A stretch of DNA of 64,000 nucleotides from an uncultured cyanobacterium. Its GTDB lineage: Bacteria; Cyanobacteriota; Cyanobacteriia; CAKZMO01. The stretch's first letter is position 1, and each line of letters opens with the position of its first letter. Shown in pieces: positions 25,465 to 47,104 of this stretch. Under the pieces are notes generated by a model. It searched no databases. It was not told the DNA's origin and saw only the letters and a program-made list of their open reading frames with translations. The translations under genes were made by a program, and so were the position numbers. The stretch spans positions 416,001 to 480,000 of the forward strand of contig CAVRCJ010000003.1 in assembly GCA_963719515.1 (NCBI GenBank), given 5' to 3'.

Positions 25465-27021
25465 GTACCTATTCAGGTGCAGGGATTGACAAAGGGAGAC
25501 GTTGCGGTAGCGTTAGTTGATGAGCCCACCACCTGCCTCGGATATTCCAGACCTCAGCGAATTAGAGCAAGCACCGCGCTCTGTGCTGGTAGGGATTATC
25601 GTGCGGCAGCAAGAGCTGATAGAGCAGCTAGCTCGAGAGGTAGAGCGGCTCAAAGGAATCATTGATAGCGATAGCCAGAGTTCGTCGAAACCGCCGTCAA
25701 GCGACTTGGTGCGACGCAGTGAGAAACCAAAGCCAGCAGAAGAGGGGAAAGAGGATTTGCCCAAAGCCGGCAAGCGGAAAGCAGGGGGACAGCCAGGGCA
25801 CCAGGGGAAAACACGCAAGGGATTTGGACGAGTAGATCGATACGAGGTGGTGCATCTAGAGCATTGCCCGAGATGCGGAAGTGGACATATCGAAAGCGTG
25901 GGACAAAGCTATCGGTGCTACCAGGTGGCGCAGCTGGTGGCCAAGCCGATAGAAGTGGTGGAATACCAGCAGTGGCGGGGATATTGCGGGGGATGTGGTA
26001 GCCATGTCGCTGCGCCCTTACCCGAGGATGTGGTGGCAGGAGAGGATTTGGGCGTGAGCTTGCAGGCGATGCTGGTGTGGCTGAGTCACTATGGCCACTT
26101 ATCCTACGGCAAGCAGCAGGAATGGCTCAAAGAGCTAGGTGATATCGAGGTAGGTGTGGGGACGCTTGTGGCAACGACGCGGCGGGCTAGCCAAGCAGTA
26201 GCGGCAGCGGTGGATGACTTGCAAGCTTGGGCAAAGCAGCAACCACAGCTGCATGTGGATGAAACAGCTTGGCTGGTGAAGGGGGTCAAAGAGTGGTTAT
26301 GGACCATCAGCGGTGAAGGATTTGCGCTCCTCCATGCCGGGGATACCCGCTCGCGCAGTGAGCTGGAGATGCTGCTGGGAAAGAGCTTTGCAGGGGTGCT
26401 CATCTCCGATGACTACAGCGTATACAACGGCTACCCGGTAGCCGCTCAGCAGAAGTGCCTAGCGCACCTATTGCGGCACTTCAAGCAAGTAGCTAAGCTA
26501 AAGCCCCCGCACCAGAAGGCATTGGCCGAAGCATTCATTGCCTTGATAAAAGAGGCCTTTGACCGCCATCGCCACTACCGCCTCGCAGGCGACAGGGCAT
26601 CCTATAACCTATGGGCTGAGCAATTCAAAGTTACATTAGCCGAGGCAATAGCCGAGTGGAAGCCCAAAGCGGGCCATGCGGCTGGGCTTCTGCTCACCTC
26701 ATTGGTGAGCAAGGCGCACCAGTGGTGGTACTTCCTAGACCACCCTCAGGTGCCGCCAGACAACAATTGTGCTGAGCGCTCGCTGCGGCTCGGAGTGACC
26801 AAACGCAAGGTGTCAGGCGGCTCTCGCTCGATGTCAGGCTTTGAGCACACCGCACGACTATTATCGGTGATTCAGACCTGTCGGGCTCAGGGACGCTCTG
26901 CCATAGCCTTCGTCGGGCAGGCATTGGCCAAAGCGGCAGGAGCCATCGACTTGGAGGTGTCACTCATCCCTCTCCAGCATCTACAGCCCTGTGCCGTCAA
27001 CCTCTAGACCTGAATACGTAC
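25465..27021 (+). mobile_element. IS66-family element (single-ORF type)
   Basis: IRs GTACCTATTCAGGT and GTACGTATTCAGGT; 8-bp TSD CACCAACT at 25457-64 and 27022-29. Confidence 0.93.
25517..27007 (+). CDS. IS66 family transposase
   Basis: SSKPPSSD, GGQPGHQG, CxxC zinc motifs, LHVDET, QKCLAHLLR and DNNCAERSLR. Confidence 0.95.
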   Translation: MMSPPPASDIPDLSELEQAPRSVLVGIIVRQQELIEQLAREVERLKGIIDSDSQSSSKPPSSDLVRRSEKPKPAEEGKEDLPKAGKRKAGGQPGHQGKTRKGFGRVDRYEVVHLEHCPRCGSGHIESVGQSYRCYQVAQLVAKPIEVVEYQQWRGYCGGCGSHVAAPLPEDVVAGEDLGVSLQAMLVWLSHYGHLSYGKQQEWLKELGDIEVGVGTLVATTRRASQAVAAAVDDLQAWAKQQPQLHVDETAWLVKGVKEWLWTISGEGFALLHAGDTRSRSELEMLLGKSFAGVLISDDYSVYNGYPVAAQQKCLAHLLRHFKQVAKLKPPHQKALAEAFIALIKEAFDRHRHYRLAGDRASYNLWAEQFKVTLAEAIAEWKPKAGHAAGLLLTSLVSKAHQWWYFLDHPQVPPDNNCAERSLRLGVTKRKVSGGSRSMSGFEHTARLLSVIQTCRAQGRSAIAFVGQALAKAAGAIDLEVSLIPLQHLQPCAVNL

Positions 27022-29185: not shown

Positions 29186-29497
29186 ATGCTAAAAGTAGCC
29201 CTCGACCATCTGAAACAATATCTTAAAGACGAATACAGCGATCGCCTCAATCGAGTTATTTTATTCGGCTCTCACGCTAGGCAAGAGGCTACAGCTGACT
29301 CTGATATCGACATTCTAATTGTTCTAAATGATCCAGTCGATGCTAGCGTGGAAATCCGCCGCACAAGCCAATTTATCGGTCAGCTTTGTTTAGATCACGA
29401 CCTATTAATTTCTCGACTCTTCCTACCCAAATCTCGCTACGAAACAGAAAACTCTCCTCTTCTACGAAACATTCGCAATGAAGGAGTTCTGCTGTGA
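29186..29497 (+). CDS. minimal nucleotidyltransferase (MNT) antitoxin
   Basis: LFGSHARQEATADSDIDILIVL. Confidence 0.92.
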   Translation: MLKVALDHLKQYLKDEYSDRLNRVILFGSHARQEATADSDIDILIVLNDPVDASVEIRRTSQFIGQLCLDHDLLISRLFLPKSRYETENSPLLRNIRNEGVLL

Positions 29498-29865
29498 CCC
29501 CAGAACAGCAATTTCTCATGCAGAAGGCACAACGCAGCCTAGACGCAGCAACGCAGCTCCTACAACAAGAGTTCTACGACTTCGCCGTCTCTCGCGCCTA
29601 CTACGCAATGTTTTACGTGGCTGAAGCCTTGCTAGATAAAGAGGGGCTGTCTTTCTCCAGTCATGCTGCCGTAATCAGCGCTTTCGGCAGGTGTCTCGCT
29701 AAACCTGGCAAAGTTCCTACAGAATTTCATCGGCAGCTCATAGATGCGCAAGCTCAACGCACTCGCGCTGACTACGACCTTCAACCTGACTTATCACAAC
29801 AAGACGCGACGAGCCTAATCAACCAAGCTCAGCAGCTCATAGACTTCGGTTATCGAGAACTTTGA
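29494..29865 (+). CDS. HEPN domain protein
   Basis: AVSRAYYAMFY, SSHAAVISAFG and RTRADYD; GTGA overlap with the MNT gene. Confidence 0.92.
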   Translation: MTPEQQFLMQKAQRSLDAATQLLQQEFYDFAVSRAYYAMFYVAEALLDKEGLSFSSHAAVISAFGRCLAKPGKVPTEFHRQLIDAQAQRTRADYDLQPDLSQQDATSLINQAQQLIDFGYREL

Positions 29866-29918
29866 GAATCAGTATCAATCTGTGCCCTCATGCTTTTGGG
29901 CATCTAGAAACTGACGCA

Positions 29919-29968
29919 GCTCCGCGATCGCCGTCGAAGATGTGGGACCACAGCCCCAAGAGTGCAAA
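29919..29968 (+). repeat. 50-bp direct repeat, copy 2
   Basis: 40/50 identical to 29082-29131. Confidence 0.7.
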
Positions 29969-30053
29969 GCCAGCTAGCTCGGAGCGATAAGTGCTATACC
30001 CTCGCTAGCGCGATCGCCCCCTCCAATCCGTGAGTAAGCATCGTACCCTGGGC

Positions 30054-30075
30054 AGTATGTACAGGTGTGCATACT
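30054..30075. promoter_or_regulatory. palindromic operator candidate of the brnTA locus
   Basis: AGTATGTACA-GG-TGTGCATACT, 10 nt upstream of the brnT ATG. Confidence 0.55.
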
Positions 30076-30084
30076 ATGCTTAAG

Positions 30085-30170
30085 ATGGCCTACCAATAGA
30101 ATCTAGACAGGGCAGCCAGCAATCTCCGCAAGCGCGGCATCGATTTTGCCGACAGTACGAAGAGGAATAA
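30085..30170 (+). pseudogene. BrnT toxin remnant (nonsense change plus internal deletion)
   Basis: MAYQ*NLDRAASNLRKRGIDFAD fused to C-terminal QYEEE* just before brnA. Confidence 0.75.
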
Positions 30171-30172
30171 CC

Positions 30173-30418
30173 ATGGAAGCCGAATACGACTTTAGCCAAG
30201 GCAAACGCGGGGCAATTGATCCAACCCCAACCGGCAAAACTCGCATCACCATTCGTCTCGATGAAGATATCCTGGCCTGGTTTCGTGAACAGGTCCATCG
30301 AGCGGGCGGCGGAAACTATCAAACCCTAATCAACGACGCTCTGCGCCAGCACATTCAACAGAGCCGCGAACCGCTAGAAGCTACCCTACGCCGCGTCATT
30401 CGAGAGGAGCTGAAGTAA
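30173..30418 (+). CDS. BrnA antitoxin family protein
   Basis: MEAEYDFSQGKRG...KTRITIRLDEDILAWFR...NYQTLINDALR. Confidence 0.9.
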   Translation: MEAEYDFSQGKRGAIDPTPTGKTRITIRLDEDILAWFREQVHRAGGGNYQTLINDALRQHIQQSREPLEATLRRVIREELK

Positions 30419-30620: not shown

Positions 30621-30851
30621 ATCGCGCCTTCCAAACCCGCAACTGCTTCATCCAAATCAACAACCCCTCAAACGAAACCAGCAAACACTTACTGGCAAAG
30701 CGCGATCGCCTCAGGCAAACGCGCTACCGCTCAAGCAAATCCCCTTACCACCTACGGGTATCAAGCAAACCTTCAAAGGGAACCTACCGTCGCTCAAGCG
30801 AAACCCCTCAACGCTGAAGCGCCAGCAAAAAACGCTTGCTAAACGGGATCA
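30621..30851 (+). repeat. degenerate tandem array of ~11 x 21-nt units
   Basis: ungapped 21-nt register, e.g. accgctcaagcaaatcccctt / gtcgctcaagcgaaacccctc / acccctcaaacgaaaccagca. Confidence 0.65.
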
Positions 30852-30896
30852 TGGCACAGGCGGCCCAATGAGCAGCAAAAAAAGTTTGTACTACTC

Positions 30897-30925
30897 TTGC
30901 AGCACAGCCCCCAATGCGATAGAGT
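30897..30925 (+). promoter_or_regulatory. sigma70-type promoter of leader module copy 1
   Basis: TTGCAG-N17-TAGAGT with an upstream A-tract; same position as in copy 2. Confidence 0.65.
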
Positions 30926-30931
30926 CACTTC

Positions 30932-31147
30932 TTGAGAGCTGGATCCCACAGCTCATTGCTCCCAAGTACTTTGGTCAGCGGGGGCGATCGCCATCGACAG
31001 TGACGATCGCTCCCTAACCCCCTCGACAGACAATCCCTGTCTCGGCGGCTACGGGCATTATCCCGTGCCATCCCGAAACACATCACGTCTAGGGATGGCC
31101 AAATCTTGGGTTTCTTACCCAATTCACAAAAAAGGAACCCCAAGATG
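30932..31147 (+). ncRNA. structured 5' leader RNA, copy 1
   Basis: six hairpins in the same order as 41528-41753(-), with compensatory changes. Confidence 0.7.
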
Positions 31148-31477
31148 ACAACTCAAAACCGCCCGTTGTCCCTTCTCTCCGAGGGGGCGGCACAGGCCCA
31201 AATGCCCGAAAATCAAGGGCCCAAGCGACCCGCCCCCGAGAGTATACTCAGGCTCACCCGCCCTGACCCCGAAACCGACGACGAATATCTGCACCACATC
31301 ATCATCGGCTCCCCCAAAGCCGTCGAAGACACCATCAAGCTGCTGCACGTGCTGCAGTACGTCGAAAACCGGCGATGGACGCCGCTCATCCCCATTCGGG
31401 AACAGGGGCTGAGGATTACCCCCAATGAAGGGCAGGTGCTGAGCTATTTGGTGCGGCAGCAGCCGAAGCGCTCCTAG
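31145..31477 (+). CDS. small cyanobacterial hypothetical protein ('HHIIIGSP' family), copy 1
   Basis: 110 aa; paralogous to 41219-41530 (HHIIIGSPKAVEDTIKLLHVLQYVENRRWT...GQVLSYLVR). Confidence 0.85.
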   Translation: MTTQNRPLSLLSEGAAQAQMPENQGPKRPAPESILRLTRPDPETDDEYLHHIIIGSPKAVEDTIKLLHVLQYVENRRWTPLIPIREQGLRITPNEGQVLSYLVRQQPKRS

Positions 31478-31488
31478 CTCACCGCAAC

Positions 31489-31515
31489 GGTCAGGTGGGT
31501 ATTACTCACCTGACC
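31489..31515 (+). terminator. hairpin after the small ORF (terminator or REP-like)
   Basis: GGTCAGGTGGGT-att-ACTCACCTGACC. Confidence 0.5.
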
Positions 31516-31564
31516 CTGCGTCAAAAACATCACCCTACCCATAGGTTTTAATGGTGGTGTTGAT

Positions 31565-34031
31565 GTGGGTTTTTACCTCGTGCCTCCTAAATCCTTTCCC
31601 CCCAAAGCAGCTCAGCAGCCCACCCCAACTCGGCTCATTCAGCAGTGGGTCAATCGGGTTGTGAGCGCCGGGGCGATCGCTGTATTGTCGGCGGGCTCGG
31701 GGTATGCTGATGCCGCGATCGCCAACCCAAGCGCCACTGACGCAGGGCAGCCCAGCGAGAGAACCACCCTTGCCCAAGCGCAGCCAGAACTACAGCAGCT
31801 GACGGCATTGCTCGATGCTGTTTTAGAGGCTGCCGCCACCATCGACGCGCCCCAGCCCAGCGCCGAGGCGCTGAGCGACATTGCCGGTGCATACGTGGCG
31901 CTGGGAGATGCGCAGCAAGCCGCGACGGTGATTGAATCAGCCCGACGAGCCGCTTTTAGCATCGACGAGCCCAGCGAAAAATCTTCTGCGCTGACCGCCG
32001 TTACGACAGTATACGGGCAGATAGGAAACCCACAGCAGGCCGCAACGGTGTTTGAAGCGGCCCTGCAGGCTGCCGTCAGCATCAGTGATCCTGAGACTCG
32101 GTCCAATGCGTTGAGTAAAATCGTACGGGCTGCGGCTCAGCTGGGAGAAGTTCAGCAGGCTGCCATGGTGATCAAATCAACGCTACAGACAATTCTTATC
32201 GATGAGTCTAGCTTTGATATCGAGATAATAGATGATTTTGTAGGTGCCGTTGAGCAAATAGAGGATAAGCAGAAGGCCGCGACGGTGCTTGAAGCCGCTT
32301 TAGAAGTGACTGGTACTGTTAATGAGCCTGCTACCAAAGCCCTACTGTTGAGCACTATTGGGTACGCGTATGGGCAATTGGGAGACGCGCAGCAGGCGGT
32401 GACGCTGCTCGAAGCCACCCTGGCGATCGCGATCGTAGAGCCTGAGTATAAGTCCTATCTGTTAAGCACTGTCGTAAGAGCCGCTGAGCCATTGGAAGGC
32501 TTGCCGCAGGTGGCACCGATCCTTGAAGCCGTGCTAGAGGAAACTTCTGGCCTGGAAGCGCCTCGCGACCAGCTGGGGATTTTAACCGCCATCCTGCATT
32601 CGGCTGAGAAATTGGAAGACGCGCAGCAGACAGAACTGCTGCTCGAAGCTGCGCTAGAAGCTGCGGCTGGGTTTGATGACCCTGAGCATAAATCCTCTGC
32701 GTTGAGCGAGATTGCGATCGCCTATAAGCAATTGGGAGACATCCCGCAAGCGGAGATGGCCCTCGAAGCAGCCCTAGAAACCGCAAGCGGCATCGATAGG
32801 TCAGCCAGTTCTAGGGCCCATGTGCTGATTGCTATTGCCAGGGTATACGGACAGCTGGGAGACTCGCAGCGCGCCGCAGCGCTTCTTAGCGCGACGCTAG
32901 AGGATGCGGTCAATGCTGGTGCGCCTCACAACGAAACCTCTACCTTGAGCTACATCGTGAGTGTGGCGGGACAGCTAGAAGACGTGCAGCAGGCGAGAGT
33001 AGTGCTCGAAGCGGCCTTAGCAGTAGCTGACGAGAGGGATTCTCACACGCTGACTGCGATCGCGGATGCCTACGGACAGCTGGGAGAGCCTCAGCAAGGG
33101 GCGACGGTGCTCCAGGTAGCGCTGCAGAGCACTGCAAAAATGGATGACCCGTTCTTCACAGAGGCGGTCAGAAACGGTTCGTTTCTCCTACACCCTAAAT
33201 ACGAGGCGCTCAAGCGCATTGCGGCATCAGCCCGAAAACTGGGAGATGTCGAGCAGACGACGCTCATTCTCAAGGCTGCTTTAGAAGCTGCAGCCAGTGT
33301 TGATACGCCTTACTACACAGTCACTACAATACTTGAGATTCTGAATCCATTTAGGCCAGAGCTGCTGTTCGTTCCCCCACCGGAAGGCGCGAAAGAAGCG
33401 CAGGCAGAAGTGCAGGTGGCGACAGTTCTTGAAACTGGGCTGGAAATTGCCGCCGAAATGGAGAGTCTTAGCAATAGATCCCGCGTGCTGGCCGCTGTTG
33501 CCTACGCCGCACGGAAGCTAGAAGACCCGCAGGAAGCCGCAAGGATTCTTGAAGCCGTACAACAGGCCACGAACGACATCACTGTGCCTTATTCAAGAAC
33601 GTCGCCCTTGATCAATATCTCAAGGGCGTATGCAAAGCTGGGAGATTCTCAGCAGGCGGCAGTGGCTTTCAACGACCGTGGTACAGGCCACCCTCAACGT
33701 CGATGACCCCGATGCCCAATCCTCTCTGTGGAGTTCGCTCGCGTCGTACTGCATCGCGCGAACAGACGAGCCCCAGCCGATGATTCTCGAAGCTGCGCTG
33801 CTCGCTAGCTCCAACATCGACCAGCCCAGCACCAAGTCCTACATGCTGGGCACCATTGCCAACTCGGCCGGAGACCTGAGAGATGTGCAGCAGGCGGCGA
33901 CGCTGCTTGAGGTAACCCTAGAGGCCAGCACCGATCTCAACGAGCCCAGCGATAAGTCCTCCGTGCTGCAGGCGATCGCGATCGCAGTGGGTCAATTGGC
34001 AGCTGGGCCGCTAGCGGCAAATCCGCTGTAG
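31565..34031 (+). CDS. secreted alpha-helical (TPR-like) repeat protein, frameshift near 33670
   Basis: ~39-aa repeats of the type YGQLGDxQQAAxVLEAALxAA continue in the 33630-34031 frame; signal-like segment near the N-terminus. Confidence 0.8.
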
Positions 34032-41218: not shown

Positions 41219-41530
41219 TTACCCTGTGGGTACGTCGAGCGATCGCAGCCGCATTAGGTAAAACAGCACCTGTCCCTGGCTCTGGGTGATGTTGACGCCG
41301 TTGGGGCCAATCTCGATGGGGCCGGTCCACATGGCCTGCTCCACGTAGCGCTTTAGGTGCAGCCGGTGGATGGTTTCGCGGACGGCTTCGGGGGAGCCGA
41401 TGATGATGTGGTGGACCACTTCGCCGCTGGGGCCAGGGTCGGGGGTGGTGATACGGGTGGGGGCGGCTTCGGTGGCCAGCGCGTCGGGTGCGGCCTCGGG
41501 TTGAGGTCGCTCGGGATATAGAAATGTCAT
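41219..41530 (-). CDS. small cyanobacterial hypothetical protein ('HHIIIGSP' family), copy 2
   Basis: 103 aa from MTFLYP; paralog of 31145-31477. Confidence 0.85.
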   Translation of the reverse strand: MTFLYPERPQPEAAPDALATEAAPTRITTPDPGPSGEVVHHIIIGSPEAVRETIHRLHLKRYVEQAMWTGPIEIGPNGVNITQSQGQVLFYLMRLRSLDVPTG

Positions 41531-41753
41531 GGGTTTTCTCTTTTTTTGGTGGTAAGAAAACCCAAAAATCGGGTCGATCCCTTGTCTTGGGCGTCTGGGA
41601 TGGCTGCAGATATTGGATAATACCTGCAGCTCATCGACAGGCTGACTCTGTCGAAGGGTCAGGGTGCGGCTGGTGTGTCTCAGCGCCAGTCGCGCCCGTT
41701 TGACCAAATTTTTGGGGTTTGTGGTTAAAGCTGCATCAGGTAACAGCTTCTAG
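41528..41753 (-). ncRNA. structured 5' leader RNA, copy 2
   Basis: same helix order as 30932-31147, with compensatory changes. Confidence 0.7.
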
Positions 41754-41759
41754 CAAATG

Positions 41760-41788
41760 AGTGTATCGGCAATGGGGCTTAAAGGCAA
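41760..41788 (-). promoter_or_regulatory. sigma70-type promoter of leader module copy 2
   Basis: minus strand TTGCCT-N17-TACACT with an upstream A-tract. Confidence 0.65.
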
Positions 41789-42046: not shown

Positions 42047-43661
42047 CTAGGTGACTCTACCTAGATCTTGAATTGCTGTCTTGCATTTCTCTACTTCCTT
42101 TGGCAGCCCTAGCTCCTGAAATAGAGCCTGTGCCGCCTCGTAGCAGGATTGGGCTTCTAATTGCCGATCTACTTTAGTAAGGGTGAGGGCTTTGTTGAAT
42201 AGAGAATTAGCTTCCCCTTGGCGATCGCCAATCTCCCGCGCGATTTCGAGGGATTGCTGATAGAAGTCTATGGCCTGCTGATACTGCCCCAGGGAATGGT
42301 AGGCATTCCCTAGATTGCCGAGTGAGGTTGCCTTCCCCTTGGCGATCGCCAATCTCCCACGCGATTTCGAGGGATTGCTGATGGAAGTCGATGGCCTGCT
42401 GATACTGCCCCAGTGAATTGTAGGCATTCCCCAGATTGCCGAGTGAGGTGGCTTCCCCTTGGCGATCGCCAATCTCCCGTGATTTCGAGGGATTGCTGAT
42501 GGAAATCGATGGCCTGCTGATACTGCCCAGGAATGTAGGCACCCCAGATTGCTTGCCTCCCCACAATCGCCAATCTCTCGTGATTTCGAGGGATTGCTGA
42601 TGGAAGTCGATGGCCTGCCGATACTGCCCCAGTGAATAGTAGACATTCCCCAGATTGTTGAGAGAGTTTGCTTTCCCTTTGGACTCACCAATCTCTCTCG
42701 CGATTTCGAGGGATTGCTGATGGAAGTCGATGGCTTGCTGATACTGCCCCAGAGACTGGTAGGCATTCCCCAGATTGTCAAGTGAGTTTGCTTCCCCTTG
42801 GGGATCGCCCAGCTCACGATACAGCACCAGCGCTTGTTGATAATAGTCAAGACTTTGAAACGGACGCCCGCAATGCCGCAGCGAATCTCCCAAATTGCGC
42901 AGCGATCGCGCCTGCCCAGATACGTCCTTTTTGCGTTTTGCCAGCCCCAGCGCCTTCTCATACTGCTCCAGGGCCATAGAGTAGTCATACTCACTCTCCC
43001 AAGCCTTCCCCAAGTCGTTGTAAAGCGTAATCAAAAGTGGCGAATCTGACTCTATATCCGCAATTTGCTGCTGCAGTTCCTCAATAGAGAGCTGCCCTTT
43101 CCGGTCCGCCCGGTCTGTCTCCTGCATCTGCGGCAACTGCCCCTCTTGCCCCGCAGCCACCACCGACTCCGCCACAAACTCAAACACCCCGCTGCGCCAG
43201 CTCCAAAAGTCCGGTGCCGCCCGCGAAAGCCGCGTCGCAATCGAATCCGCCAGCCACAGCACAATAGGGAACTCAAACTGCCGCAGCGCCTCCCGCGTCC
43301 ACTGCAGCGAAAAGAAAAACCGCTCCTGCTCTGACTGCTCTTGGTTTAGCCGCACCCCCAGCAGCTCGCTAGCATTCACTATTGTCACCATCGCCGTCCC
43401 GTCCCGCAGGGCAGGCTCGCGGGCTACCATCGCCTCCAGCGTTGCCCGCAGACTGGGCTGCTTAGGGTCGAGTCGTGCCCGCAGTGGGGTGATGCCTGCC
43501 TGATTTAGCTCCGCCTCGTAGTTCTCAATCAGCTGGGCCTGCAGGTTGCGATCGTCGCATATGGCTAGCAGAAGGTCGAGCTGCTGGGCGCTGGCCTTGA
43601 TGGATACTAGTAGCTTGCGGTATTCGCGCTGGTTGAGGCGATCGAGGTCGGGGGGCGTCAT
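42047..43661 (-). CDS. tetratricopeptide repeat protein with conserved N-terminal domain; frameshifts within the repeats
   Basis: ~40-aa repeats GEANSLxNLGNAYxSLGQYQQAIDFHQQSLEIAREIGD; N-domain with LQWTREAL...APDFWSWRSGVFEF. Confidence 0.85.
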
Positions 43662-43736
43662 AGAGGTTGCTTTCAAGGGACGCCGATCTAGAAGCAGAGC
43701 TCAATGTGACAAAGAGCTTTTGCTTGTGCATCCTGA

Positions 43737-43990
43737 GATCCCCCCGCCTCCGGCACCCCCCTTGTTAAGGGGATGTTTGAAAAGTATCGGCTGGAGGGTT
43801 ACCTCTTGCCTCACCCCCCTCAATCCCCCTACGCCCTTTGGGCACGCTGCGCGAATGGCAAGGGGGGAAGTTGGAGTTCTCCCCCTTGAGCTTTGGCGTT
43901 AGCTTGCCCGCAGGGCGTAGGGGAGTTAGAGGGGGTAATGCAGCACTTTTGTGGCTTTTCAAACGCCCTCTAGGGGGGGCGGGGGGGATC
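43737..43990. repeat. REP-like palindrome split by a MITE
   Basis: GATCCCCCCGCCTCCGGCACCCCCCTTGTTAA ... GGGGGGGCGGGGGGGATC flanks the MITE. Confidence 0.6.
43769..43970. mobile_element. MITE, same family as 17819-20931, inverted
   Basis: TIRs GGGGATGTTTGAAAAG and CTTTTCAAACGCCCTC; flanked by TAA and TAG. Confidence 0.75.
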
Positions 43991-43994
43991 GCCT

Positions 43995-45307
43995 TCAAAT
44001 CAACTTTTTCCGCTTCAGCAAATCCACCACAATTGGGTGCAGGTCATACCACAGATCATCATTCACATATTCCAGCACATACAGCCCGTGCAGCAGATTC
44101 CAGAAAAGTCAATCGCTCTTAATATCCGCTGGCGTAAAATCCCGGTACGTCTCCACCAGCAAATCATATAGATTACTGCCCAGCGTCCGGGCGAACTGAT
44201 TCCGCAGCGATCTCACCGACACTTCAAGACATACTGGCATCGATTTTAACGTCAGGCGTCTCCTCCGTTTCCAGCTCTATCATGCATTCCCGAATGCACT
44301 CCTGGGCCAGCCGCACCAGCTCCCGCAGCACCCCGCCGCTCAGCAGCACAATTTGCCGCTTCATCTCCGGCTCAATTAGCTTATCTGGAACGCGCTTCTC
44401 CAGCAGCGCGACCAGCCGCTGCACATTTTTTTCAAGGGGCGCGGCCCCTTCTTGATGTGCCACTGCCTGCGGAAAAAACTTAGTCACCGGCAGCATCACG
44501 ATGCGACTATCAGACTCCAGGGTTGTAATCAGCCGAGGCTCTCGAATCACGGCGATGGGGATGGTGAACACCACGCGGATATTGGGAGAGAACAGCGCCT
44601 TGATATTGTCCTGAAAGATGGTTCTGACCACCGCTAGGTCGAGCTTGTCTAGGTCATCAATAATCACCAGCACGGGCTTTTTGAGTTGCGGCCTGAATCG
44701 CCGCCGCAATTAGGTCAATCTGCCGCGACAGATCCGATACTCGGCGCTCATAGGTCTGCTTAATTTCCTCTCGAAATGCCTCTTCCTTCTGCAGCTTTGC
44801 CGTAAATAGCTCAAAGAACTTCCCCCCCAGCCCCATTTCCTGCTTGAGCTGGTCGCTGTAGGTGCGGGATTTGGTTTCGGTAAACCAGGTCATCAGCGTC
44901 GTCTTGAGTGCGACTCTGGAATTGGCACCTGTAGCTTGGTGGCCTGACTAAGCAGCTTCAGGGCGATCGCATAGAGAATGTTGATGTGGTTTACGTCCGA
45001 CATCTCCACCATGTCGGCAATGGAGAATAGGGCCACAAAGTGTCCGTCCTCGCGCAGCCGCCGCACGAGCTGGGCCAGCAGCGTAGATTTGCCGCAGCCC
45101 CGATGCCCCGTAAAAATTAGCTTACCTGCCTTATCCGAGGCCAAGATGTCGCTGCGCAGCTTGGCCAAGGCCCGCTGACCGTAGGGCACGCGAAACTTTT
45201 CGATGTCCTCCGCCGATAGCAGCGGAAACAGCCTTCAGATTGCGGTACGTCTCAGTCAGTTTCTCGGAGCGCTGACGAAATTGCGCAGTGCGCTCGTCAT
45301 GGTCCAT
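43995..45307 (-). CDS. P-loop ATPase (AAA/STAND-like), multiple frameshifts
   Basis: Walker A GHRGCGKST, Walker B VLVIIDDLDKL, SGGVLRELVRL and WYDLHPIV across successive frames. Confidence 0.82.
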
Positions 45308-45386
45308 CGGCGAGGGTCCAAGACCAGCCATAGGCTAACGCCTCCAAAAATCTGCACTCATCATACCGGAGTTAGAAAACGAAGGC

Positions 45387-45850
45387 TTAAACAACCCACA
45401 AATACACCGTCGATTCCTCCTCAGACTCCGGCAGCTTCACCACGCGCTGCGGCTCCCAATCCCCCATATCAAACTGGTGCGACACCACACGACTCCCAGC
45501 CCGGAGCTGGCGTAGCTTAGGCCGCAGCCGCACATTTAGGTGGGGCAGCAGATAGACAAACACCACAGTCGCCTCATCAAAAGACTCCTCATACAAATTG
45601 CCCACCCGAAACGAAACGCGATCGCCCACCCCGGCCCGCTCCGCCAGCGATCGCCCCTCTTCCACCCGAACCGGGTCAATATCGATGCCCACCCCCCGAG
45701 CCCCGTAGCGCTGCGCCGCCTGGATCTAAAATCCGCCCGTCGCCGCTGCCCAGGTCATACACCACGTCCTCTGGGGTCAAGGCCGCTAGCTCTAGCATCA
45801 CCTCTAGCGCATCCTGCGGCGTGGGGATGAAGCCGATGTCGGGGGAAACC
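45387..45850 (-). pseudogene. class I SAM-dependent methyltransferase, 5' end lost at the IS1380 junction
   Basis: FIPTPQDA..VVYDLGSGDGRI..GVGIDIDP..ATVVFVYLLP..GSRVVSHQFDMGDW; 1-bp shift near 45727. Confidence 0.8.
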
Positions 45851-47104
45851 CGCTGGGTAGAGGTGCGGTCGCTGAACAGGGCAAGCTGGTGTTCCTTGAT
45901 GCGATTCTCCATATCGCCCCTGGGGCAATAGAGGTCTTGGTGAAGCGCTGAAGGAAGCATCTGGCTCGCGGGAATCGAGGTGACGACATAGTGACGCTTG
46001 GGGCCAGCCTCTGAGTAGGTGATTTTGCTCACCACGCGCCGCCGCCTTGTCCAAGACGATTGGGTGCGGTAGTAGACGGTACGATACCAAGCGGTGGTGG
46101 GCAAGGGAGGCTCGACGCTACCGCAGCGCTCGAACTCAGCTTTAGCCTTGGCTTCAAGCGGTTGGCTCATGCGCTCCAAAACCCCATTGCCCGCTAGCCC
46201 CAGCACATAGTCCACACTTGGCTGCGCCTCGCACCAGCTCATGATGTCCTCTCGGCCATAGGCGCTGTCGCCCCGCACGATGATTCTCACCTCAGGCCAG
46301 CGCAGACGCAGCTTGGGAATGATGCGCTGCAGCTGCTCCAAAGCGCCTTGAGCTGGGTCCACGTTCGAAGGGCGCAGTTGCGCCGCCAGCAGGTGATGTC
46401 CGCAGAAAATCAACAGCGGCGCGTAGCACTCATGCTGGTAGTAGCCATTGAAGAAGCTATCAATCTGGTTGCCATGGGTAGCATCATCGGTTACGTCCAA
46501 GTCCAATATCAGCTCCTTTGGAGTGGGCTCTGATAGCTGAAAAAATAGGTCAAGAAACGTTTGCTCTATCGCCTCCCGGTCCATGCTGATGCGCACGTAG
46601 CGCCCTGGCTTTTCGCTGTCGTAGTGCGGCGAGCCCTCGAAGCGATTCAGCGTACTCTTGCCTGACAACGGCGCGCAGCGGGCGTGATTGCTCTCAAGCT
46701 TCCCAACCGCCGCGCAGAAGCTCAGGTCGTGGCGCAACTGCTCATGGTCATTGAGATCCTCATATCCCTGCACCAATCCATACAGCCGCTGGCTCAACAG
46801 ATGCTCTACGCTATGCTGCACCCGTGATGGGTCTCGGTGGTCCGTGAAGCACTCCGCAAACTTACCGCTGATGCCAAAGTGGCGATCTACTGCTGCCACT
46901 AGCGCTAGCCCACCGTCGTGGCTCAGGTGCCCACCATCAAAATCCACGACAACCTTGCGCTTGTCGATGCGATCTACAACGATGGGTTTTCCGCTACACT
47001 CTGTAATTGTTGGGGTCATAGGTTAAAGCTGCCAGAAGCTTTGTGGTATCTGCATTCTCGCAGTTCTTTGACCCCAACTTCTACCTCTTGGTGAGATATC
47101 CGGG
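45851..47104 (-). mobile_element. IS1380-family element, 3'-truncated
   Basis: transposase from 47019 (DFDGGHLSHDGG, LDLDVTDD, VRGDSAY, YCPRGDMENRIKE) breaks off at LFSDRTSTQR; putative left end CCCGGATATCTCACC at 47104; no right end seen. Confidence 0.85.

Follow-up and report, generated by a model that had tools for sequence, protein, structure and literature searches.

Two copies of one module, in which a predicted promoter is followed by a long structured leader and a small open reading frame (ORF), lie in the window, i.e. the whole stretch of 64,000 nucleotides of cyanobacterial DNA that was analysed. Copy 1 is encoded on the plus strand and copy 2 on the minus strand, and the coordinates of their features are collected in Table 1. 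An earlier reading made from the letters of the DNA (hereafter the sequence-only reading) had listed helices, a promoter pattern and the ORF for each copy, and all of these were found where it had placed them. The leader of copy 1 measures ~213 nt from the predicted start to the AUG. It folds at z -6.1 and that of copy 2 at z -7.0, with 0/200 shuffles as good. A TTGC-type promoter had been proposed upstream, and the pattern TTGnnn-N16-18-TAnnnT indeed precedes 55 of the 60 parsed copies of the family compared with 1.3% of random windows, though a stricter consensus promoter scanner returned 0 promoters in 30800–31600. The final stem (H6), described as covering the RBS and reaching the AUG, is predicted to sequester the RBS, but in copy 1 its end lies 1–4 nt before the AUG. 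The stable hairpin behind the stop codon of copy 1 is not conserved at the equivalent position of copy 2 (z -1.0). At gathering level, Rfam gave no match in the 64-kb window, and no tRNA was found there. This agrees with the sequence-only reading, which recognised no named RNA family; the closest named RNA, SymR, had escaped it.

Table 1. Coordinates of the features of both module copies in the window
Feature	Position	Strand	Remarks
Predicted mRNA promoter, copy 1	30897–30925	+	-35 30897–30902, spacer 17 nt, -10 30920–30925; predicted start ~30932
H1, mRNA 5' hairpin, copy 1	30936–30954	+	Two-sided changes in 3/6 pairs; many sense-strand G-U
Segment a (anti-anti-SD), copy 1	30961–30976	+	Partner 31097–31110 in nascent transcript; nascent folds and shuffled control
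Predicted SymR-like cis-antisense RNA, copy 1	30977–31050	-	~74 nt, two hairpins complementary to H3 and H2, copy-specific loops; 3' end by analogy to SymR
H2, copy 1	30980–31014		Located in sequence
H3, copy 1	31025–31041		Located in sequence
H4 and H5, mRNA hairpins, copy 1	31047–31096	+	H4 31047–31069, H5 31070–31096; antisense -10 within H4 loop
Predicted antisense -10, copy 1	31057–31062	-	GATAAT; TAAAAT or TACAAT in 30/60 copies; no conserved -35
Segment a' / anti-SD, copy 1	31097–31110	+	Overlaps RBS hairpin; long-range partner of a
H6, RBS-sequestering hairpin, copy 1	31106–31143	+	Fold predictions; a' and anti-SD overlap
Protein ORF, copy 1	31145–31477	+	110 aa; ATG at 31145
Stable hairpin 3' of stop, copy 1	31483–31520	+	z -5.9; possible terminator
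Predicted mRNA promoter, copy 2	41760–41788	-	From sequence
Leader, copy 2	41531–41753	-	H1 41728–41749, a 41702–41716, H2 41662–41697, H3 41636–41652, H4–H6 up to ATG
Predicted antisense RNA, copy 2	41628–41700	+	~73 nt; -10 GATAAT at 41616–41621
Protein, copy 2	41219–41530	-	103 aa, 44% identity to copy 1; ATG 41530

A large cyanobacterial family

The repetition noted from the two copies is real, but it extends to ~70 copies in the host genome (5.28 Mb, 57% GC, with photosystem genes and dense HIP1). An iterated profile gave 80 domain matches, corresponding to 78 loci after merging, of which 68 hold the full core in one frame. The ORF is broken or partial at 10/78 loci, in some cases below an intact RNA, which fits a dispensable gene and not a toxin specifically. 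Among 72 profile matches of at least 58 bits, 60 could be parsed into a common hairpin layout and 12 fell below the parsing threshold; family statistics refer to these 60 copies, or to the 50–51 for which a start codon was assigned. When 150 candidates of this genome were scored with a covariance model of the H2–H3 core, 68 matched; the model also has matches in 12/16 further genomes of the order and, with 22 candidates scored per genome, in 9/150 other genomes sampled from the phylum (five other families). A family ORF lies 3' of 41 of the 44 RNA matches having at least 450 nt of downstream DNA.

The protein itself occurs in 34/300 other genomes and forms 762 clusters at 50% identity. Homologs were found on 10 cyanobacterial plasmids and none in 50,697 phage records, while a narrow motif pattern matched no viral contig and six genome loci (five in cyanobacterial MAGs, one a probable chance match). 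On plasmid D of Trichormus variabilis (1190–1620 of the locus), the homolog lies between parG and a replication gene and has a symE-like loop in a short hairpin leader, which an inverted-repeat insertion separates from the ORF. Seven further loci (L074, L081, L082, L084–L086, and L089) display a third regulatory form, with a single short hairpin leader immediately upstream of the RBS, and no symR match was obtained for the short hairpin leaders of Nostocales-type homologs. In another genome (G005, locus L194, 1420–1497) the leader is broken just after H3 by an antisense-oriented group II intron sequence (Rfam Intron_gpII, E 2e-4), and a leader of genome G000 (C1:181200–181990) is likewise broken at this point by such a sequence, as read by eye. 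An interpretation as a CRISPR-like orphan array of Anabaena was rejected.

The proteins comprise a variable Pro-rich N-terminus followed by a conserved beta-alpha-loop-beta core of ~65 aa, which AlphaFold models as strand-helix-loop-strand (pLDDT 83). As judged from sequence comparison, the ORF is under purifying selection (rough dN/dS of the core 0.16). It is predicted to encode a soluble homodimer: the dimer model has a score of 0.49, a mark attained by 20/30 solved pairs and by 1/23 single chains, whereas the best of three controls stays at 0.00, and at least 95% of contacts are shared between runs (pLDDT 71). No hydrophobic segment was found (peak 19-residue hydropathy 1.3 in 60 proteins), nor any resemblance to known toxins. 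Searches of Pfam, NCBIfam, PHROGs, and PDB sequences gave nothing significant for the two window proteins or for 53 cores, and no Pfam SymE match was obtained among 53 members. In fold searches, which by their negatives do not show that the fold is new, the best VIA Z was 4.3 among 48,161 chains and no Foldseek match reached E <= 0.001 in PDB or BFVD; the ESM Atlas returned unnamed cyanobacterial clusters only (0.82–0.84).

Alignments of homologous leaders show that H2 and H3 covary across paralogs and other genomes. In 56 paralog leaders, 17 of their 19 pairs display two-sided changes, with a covariation score of 0.63 compared with 0.19 for shuffled and at most 0.16 for slid partners; in 51 distinct matches from other genomes, whose alignment was fitted to the model, the values are 16/19 and 0.54. 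Two-sided changes are also found in H1, H4, and H5, though just 71% (H4) and 77% (H5) of cells are paired when 29 leaders are aligned with plain MAFFT. Raw mutual information, computed on 45 leaders, was discarded as a measure because clade structure dominated the signal. The long-range helix 30961–30976/31097–31110 and the strand of H2–H3 had been overlooked in the sequence-only reading.

The strand of the leader core and its likeness to SymR

Wobble pairs indicate on which strand a hairpin is selected. On the mRNA strand, H2 shows 92 A-C against 14 G-U pairs in 60 copies (94 against 7 in the 51 matches from other genomes), and H3 shows 20 against 0. The H2–H3 core folds better on the antisense strand in 48/50 copies, by a median of 10 kcal/mol, compared with 50% of random windows, whereas this strand is better for H1 in 13/50 copies and for H4–H6 in 17/50. 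The SymR of E. coli, taken as a control for this strand test, likewise folds better as antisense (-37.8 vs -28.4). At the position expected for an antisense -10, the minus strand carries TAnnnT in 47/60 copies (9.7% background) and TAnAAT in 30/60 (0.6% background), against 0/60 on the plus strand. The counts from other genomes (TAnnnT 40/52, TAnAAT 25/52) are partly preselected, because the RNA model contains the -10 columns. The hexamer stands 6–7 nt from the SymR-like 5' end, with no conserved -35 (TTG in 8/58); both window copies deviate from TAnnnT with GATAAT. The predicted antisense RNA of copy 1 takes a two-hairpin fold like SymR, and the antisense strand of copy 2 folds at -45.8 kcal/mol (41626–41698, z -5.9). 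U-turn motifs in the antisense loops (30/60 and 26/60, against 21/60 and 9/60 in the sense loops) are suggestive for H3 alone.

Sequences of the SymR type were also retrieved directly. Among 19 distant paralog loci scanned below the gathering cut-off of Rfam symR (RF01809, 61 bits), full-length matches of 38.9, 33.4, and 25.5 bits were found on the opposite strand, the antisense-strand matches reaching E 3e-4 and 7e-3 and covering model positions 1–77. None of 21 genomes reaches the cut-off (best 38.9), and the two window copies have no symR match even at E 10. At E <= 0.05 these genomes yield 13 matches: 11 are situated upstream of an ORF of this family and in antisense orientation to it, a twelfth represents the same motif at the end of a contig, and the last has no relation to the family. 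In the reverse direction, the cyanobacterial core model finds the symE leader of E. coli as its best match in 1.8 kb, weakly (13.6 bits, E 0.01), and places its hexamer on the symR -10. This box lies within symE and was mutated in the experiments of PMC1891008. The elements of the E. coli locus stand in the order seen here: a long hairpin comes first, then a short linker, a second hairpin, and the 5' end of the RNA, with the complement of the -10 box following at a distance of 7 nt. Taken together, the wobble bias of H2–H3, the minus-strand -10, and the symR matches indicate that the leader very probably contains the gene of a ~74-nt cis-antisense RNA.

As in symE/SymR, the predicted RNA is a cis-antisense molecule of ~75 nt with two hairpins, a 5' AG(U/C)C end, a long 3' hairpin with G-U pairs and, in distant paralogs, similar flanking bases; a -10 box, as a sequence motif only, stands 6–7 nt off its 5' end on the opposite strand. 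The product is likewise soluble, ~110 aa long and multicopy, with relatives lying alternatively beside cHTH or RHH genes. What characterises symR, a ~77-nt two-hairpin RNA antisense to the leader with its structure selected on the antisense strand, has a predicted counterpart here. Unlike SymR, the predicted RNA leaves the RBS and AUG uncovered, its 5' end (31050) lying ~95 nt upstream of the ATG (31145), and its promoter is located in the leader, whereas that of SymR lies in the ORF. The cyanobacterial loci further differ by the additional H4–H6 and proposed long-range relay, by hypervariable loops, by ~70 copies, and by scores under the Rfam cut-off, and their protein is not an AbrB-fold SymE (hhalign probability 0.1% against E. 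coli SymE). Further traits of symE/SymR are LexA/SOS control and degradation by Lon. The module would resemble symE/SymR in its working, yet stands outside the family by score, protein, and RBS overlap. Since the window copies are unmatched, carry GATAAT, and the reverse search is weak, common descent of the antisense module with SymR is likely but unproven.

Other comparisons had been suggested, of which that with type I toxin leaders holds as an analogy and that with P1 C4-icd and P4 CI-kil is not supported. The latter share a long structured leader before a small ORF and specificity coded in loops, but C4 and CI are processed from RNA of the strand that also encodes their target, whereas the regulator predicted here is antisense to its target and has a predicted promoter of its own. 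No C4-family or CI-like Rfam match was found in the window at the cut-off, or in searches up to E 5–10. With hok/sok, ldr/rdl, tisB/istR-1, and ibs/sib the module would share indirect repression from a distance, a silent structured mRNA, and several paralogs per genome discriminated by variable recognition regions. The toxins of these systems, given with copy numbers of 4–12 in PMC4147584 and PMC12390103, are short hydrophobic membrane peptides, unlike the proteins described here (79–158 aa, with the low hydropathy peak given above). The same distinction separates the module from MsoT1/MsoA1 (PMC12390103) and Ncl1450/Ncr1470 (bioRxiv 10.64898/2025.12.20.695498), which also combine a small cyanobacterial ORF with an overlapping antisense RNA and encode membrane peptides. 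MsoT1/MsoA1, a type I candidate, was called the first in cyanobacteria in 2025, and the Microcystis screen that produced it deliberately omitted cytosolic SymE-like systems (PMC12390103). No description of the present family was found in the literature covered, mostly freely accessible papers (including PMC12390103, PMC1891008, PMC4147584, PMC3610870, bioRxiv 2025.12.20.695498, and bioRxiv 2020.04.14.041012).

A proposed antisense switch and its specificity

How an RNA that pairs ~95 nt upstream of the AUG could silence translation is suggested by segment a, upstream of H2, whose sequence complements that of the 5' arm in the RBS hairpin; the a:a' and anti-SD pairings overlap in 39/51 copies. 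Cognate a:a' pairs score 23.8, compared with 18.2 for non-cognate and 14.4 for shuffled ones. In nascent folds cut before the SD arm, the a:a' helix forms in 43/51 copies (more than 5 expected pairs; median 13.6), falling to 8/51 if a is shuffled. It persists in 11/51 full-length folds; the RBS is therefore predicted to be accessible in the nascent RNA and sequestered once the RNA is complete. When the 5' part is deleted, the median opening cost of the RBS increases from 7.6 to 9.9 kcal/mol (up in 35/50 copies, down in 6), whereas merely blocking the antisense target in an equilibrium model raises it from 7.6 to 8.1. For copy 1 the change is from 9.4 to 10.1, i.e. 0.7 kcal/mol, and at equilibrium the RBS is mostly closed already without the antisense RNA. 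A rigid 74-bp duplex, or its cleavage, might be what prevents the long-range helix; RNase III was dispensable for SymR action (PMC1891008).

We propose that the forward promoter would produce an mRNA with the ~213-nt leader, in which segment a would pair with the anti-SD during transcription and leave the ribosome site open, until the finished RNA relaxes into the RBS hairpin; according to the fold models, translation would be confined to a short window. The second, -10-only promoter in the leader would give rise to the ~74-nt antisense RNA of SymR shape, which would bind the nascent leader via its two loops. The resulting duplex (or its cleavage) would keep a from the anti-SD, so that the RBS hairpin could form at once. 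The silenced product would be a small soluble dimer, most likely harmful when made. Taken as a whole, from antisense RNA through relay to the silencing of a harmful protein, this switch seems to us somewhat favoured by the evidence.

The loops are the variable part of this module: no two of the 60 H2 loops are alike, and 55 of the 60 H3 loops are distinct. Since random 7-mers would also rarely coincide, close pairs are the informative test. In 10 non-overlapping pairs of at least 85% stem and 75% protein identity, loop positions are identical at 76/138 compared with 212/307 four-fold sites (Fisher p 0.005), which suggests diversification for specificity, although the divergence may be partly neutral, because identity at four-fold sites is inflated by codon bias and indels in the loops entered the count. 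As each copy has loops of its own, every antisense RNA would be expected to repress chiefly the mRNA of its own locus. Two paralogs of another genome (L174, L183) have H2 loops that are reverse complements of each other, which suggests loop inversion as a source of specificity; no such pair exists in the genome of the window.

Several observations bear on the nature of the product. Homologs that lack the RNA were scanned at 26 loci, and the ORF preceding them encodes an XRE/Cro-type HTH protein in 15 cases (10 from one genus) and an RHH protein in one. This alternation of HTH gene and RNA parallels the SymE family, in which a transcription factor (cHTH/RHH) or an sRNA serves as alternative regulator (PMC1891008). 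A TA, restriction, or TIR gene lies within ~2 kb at 17/40 loci, a raw count from 129 scanned flanking ORFs. The SymE-type alternation and the layered repression are the reasons for which the protein is deemed toxin-like; if the antisense RNA exists, the protein is more likely than not toxic. The fuller scenario, in which a new family of soluble toxins adopted a SymR-type module, moved it ~95 nt upstream, and coupled it to the RBS through the relay, with loop diversification allowing 60–70 mutually insulated pairs on a 5.3-Mb chromosome, is somewhat less likely than not.

Alternative readings, implications, and mobility

The same antisense switch could instead control a protein that stems from a plasmid or island, be it a dosage-sensitive regulator or a mobility factor, the loops being specificity codes of the incompatibility type, as in the antisense-controlled FinP/traJ, CopA/CopT, and IS10 RNA-OUT systems. 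This reading, which we consider rather unlikely, accommodates the plasmid-borne homologs, one of them between parG and a replication gene and another beside a short tyrosine-recombinase ORF, as well as the lack of a hydrophobic segment and the predicted dimer via an antiparallel first strand, a mode shared with small DNA-binding proteins; it is opposed by 40 chromosomal loci without consistent partner, origin, integrase, or transposase (one IS605 OrfB apart), and by three layers of repression that would be more typical of toxic products.

Much less probable is a non-autonomous mobile element with hairpins that would function as single-stranded DNA, like REP, attC, or IS200 ends, with the ORF as passenger or helper. 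Copies are indeed scattered (~70, with unrelated flanks), a 94%-identical pair is alike from promoter to stop codon only, locations differ among congeners, and hairpins of single-stranded DNA can likewise produce strand-biased wobble pairs. Against this, neither terminal repeats nor a target duplication nor a clean empty site were seen in comparisons with relatives that are ~80% identical and fragmented; the hairpins are internal instead of terminal, and this reading accounts neither for a -10 spaced as in SymR nor for the SymR match. In 27 best-pair alignments (reciprocal pairs counted twice), the -35 lies no more than 6 nt from the start of similarity in 12 and the stop codon no more than 13 nt from its end in 21, with no terminal repeats. 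HIP1, whose enrichment beside the copies (36/60 and 25/60 vs 19–20%) would fit such an element, is found at few homology ends (6/27 and 8/27 vs 8.7% background) and is therefore not established as the end of a mobile unit.

Least probable of all, by a hair, is the view of the sequence-only reading, right as to a selected RNA coupled to a small protein of unknown function, that the whole structure is one sense-strand cis-regulatory leader or processed RNA (C4/CI type or riboswitch-like) with no antisense transcript: H1, H4–H6, and the a:a' helix do fold on the mRNA strand as a closed multi-branch structure, but H2–H3 is selected on the other strand, the -10 motif occurs on the minus strand only, the hypervariable loops are unlike a ligand pocket, and C4/CI-like Rfam matches are absent up to E 5–10.

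With the antisense switch as the preferred reading, the data point to a large, undescribed multicopy family of RNA-silenced, possibly toxic genes. If this is true, a soluble type I candidate, found across several cyanobacterial families, would be added beside the membrane-peptide pair of PMC12390103, and the SymR design would be a portable module independent of SymE. The 60–70 pairs would then be several times the copy numbers given for SymE, Hok, and Ibs (PMC1891008, PMC4147584, PMC12390103), SymE being present in at least 14 copies in Erwinia (PMC1891008). With stems fixed and loops changed among ~70 paralogs, the evolution of antisense specificity becomes testable within one genome, which would also offer, if the switch operates as proposed, a natural library of orthogonal RNA/translational switches for cyanobacteria. 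The protein is a new target, toxic or otherwise, its 762 clusters being without annotation or fold match.

The flanks of 40 copies are varied, with one IS605 OrfB and no integrase. Directly upstream of copy 1 lie a MNT-HEPN pair and a BrnA antitoxin gene (29186–30418), and the block of copy 1 with MNT/HEPN and BrnA is absent between the same flanks in one congener. In three congeners copy 2 is not next to the ferredoxin gene, each having different DNA there, and other copies hold their position in a congener. Two ORFs of the window (25517–27007 and 45676–47019) are presumably IS66-like and IS1380-like transposases, judging by motifs, and upstream of copy 2 (42047–45331) TPR and ATPase-like ORFs are apparently frameshifted into several pieces. 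In genome G000, one copy (C10:637718–638239) has a stop codon in the core with its RNA intact and shares 94% identity across 533 bp with an undamaged copy on C15. A site adjacent to aroC holds a cassette in both G311 (L199) and G000 (L164), the two belonging to different paralog clades and the ORF of G311 being internally deleted.
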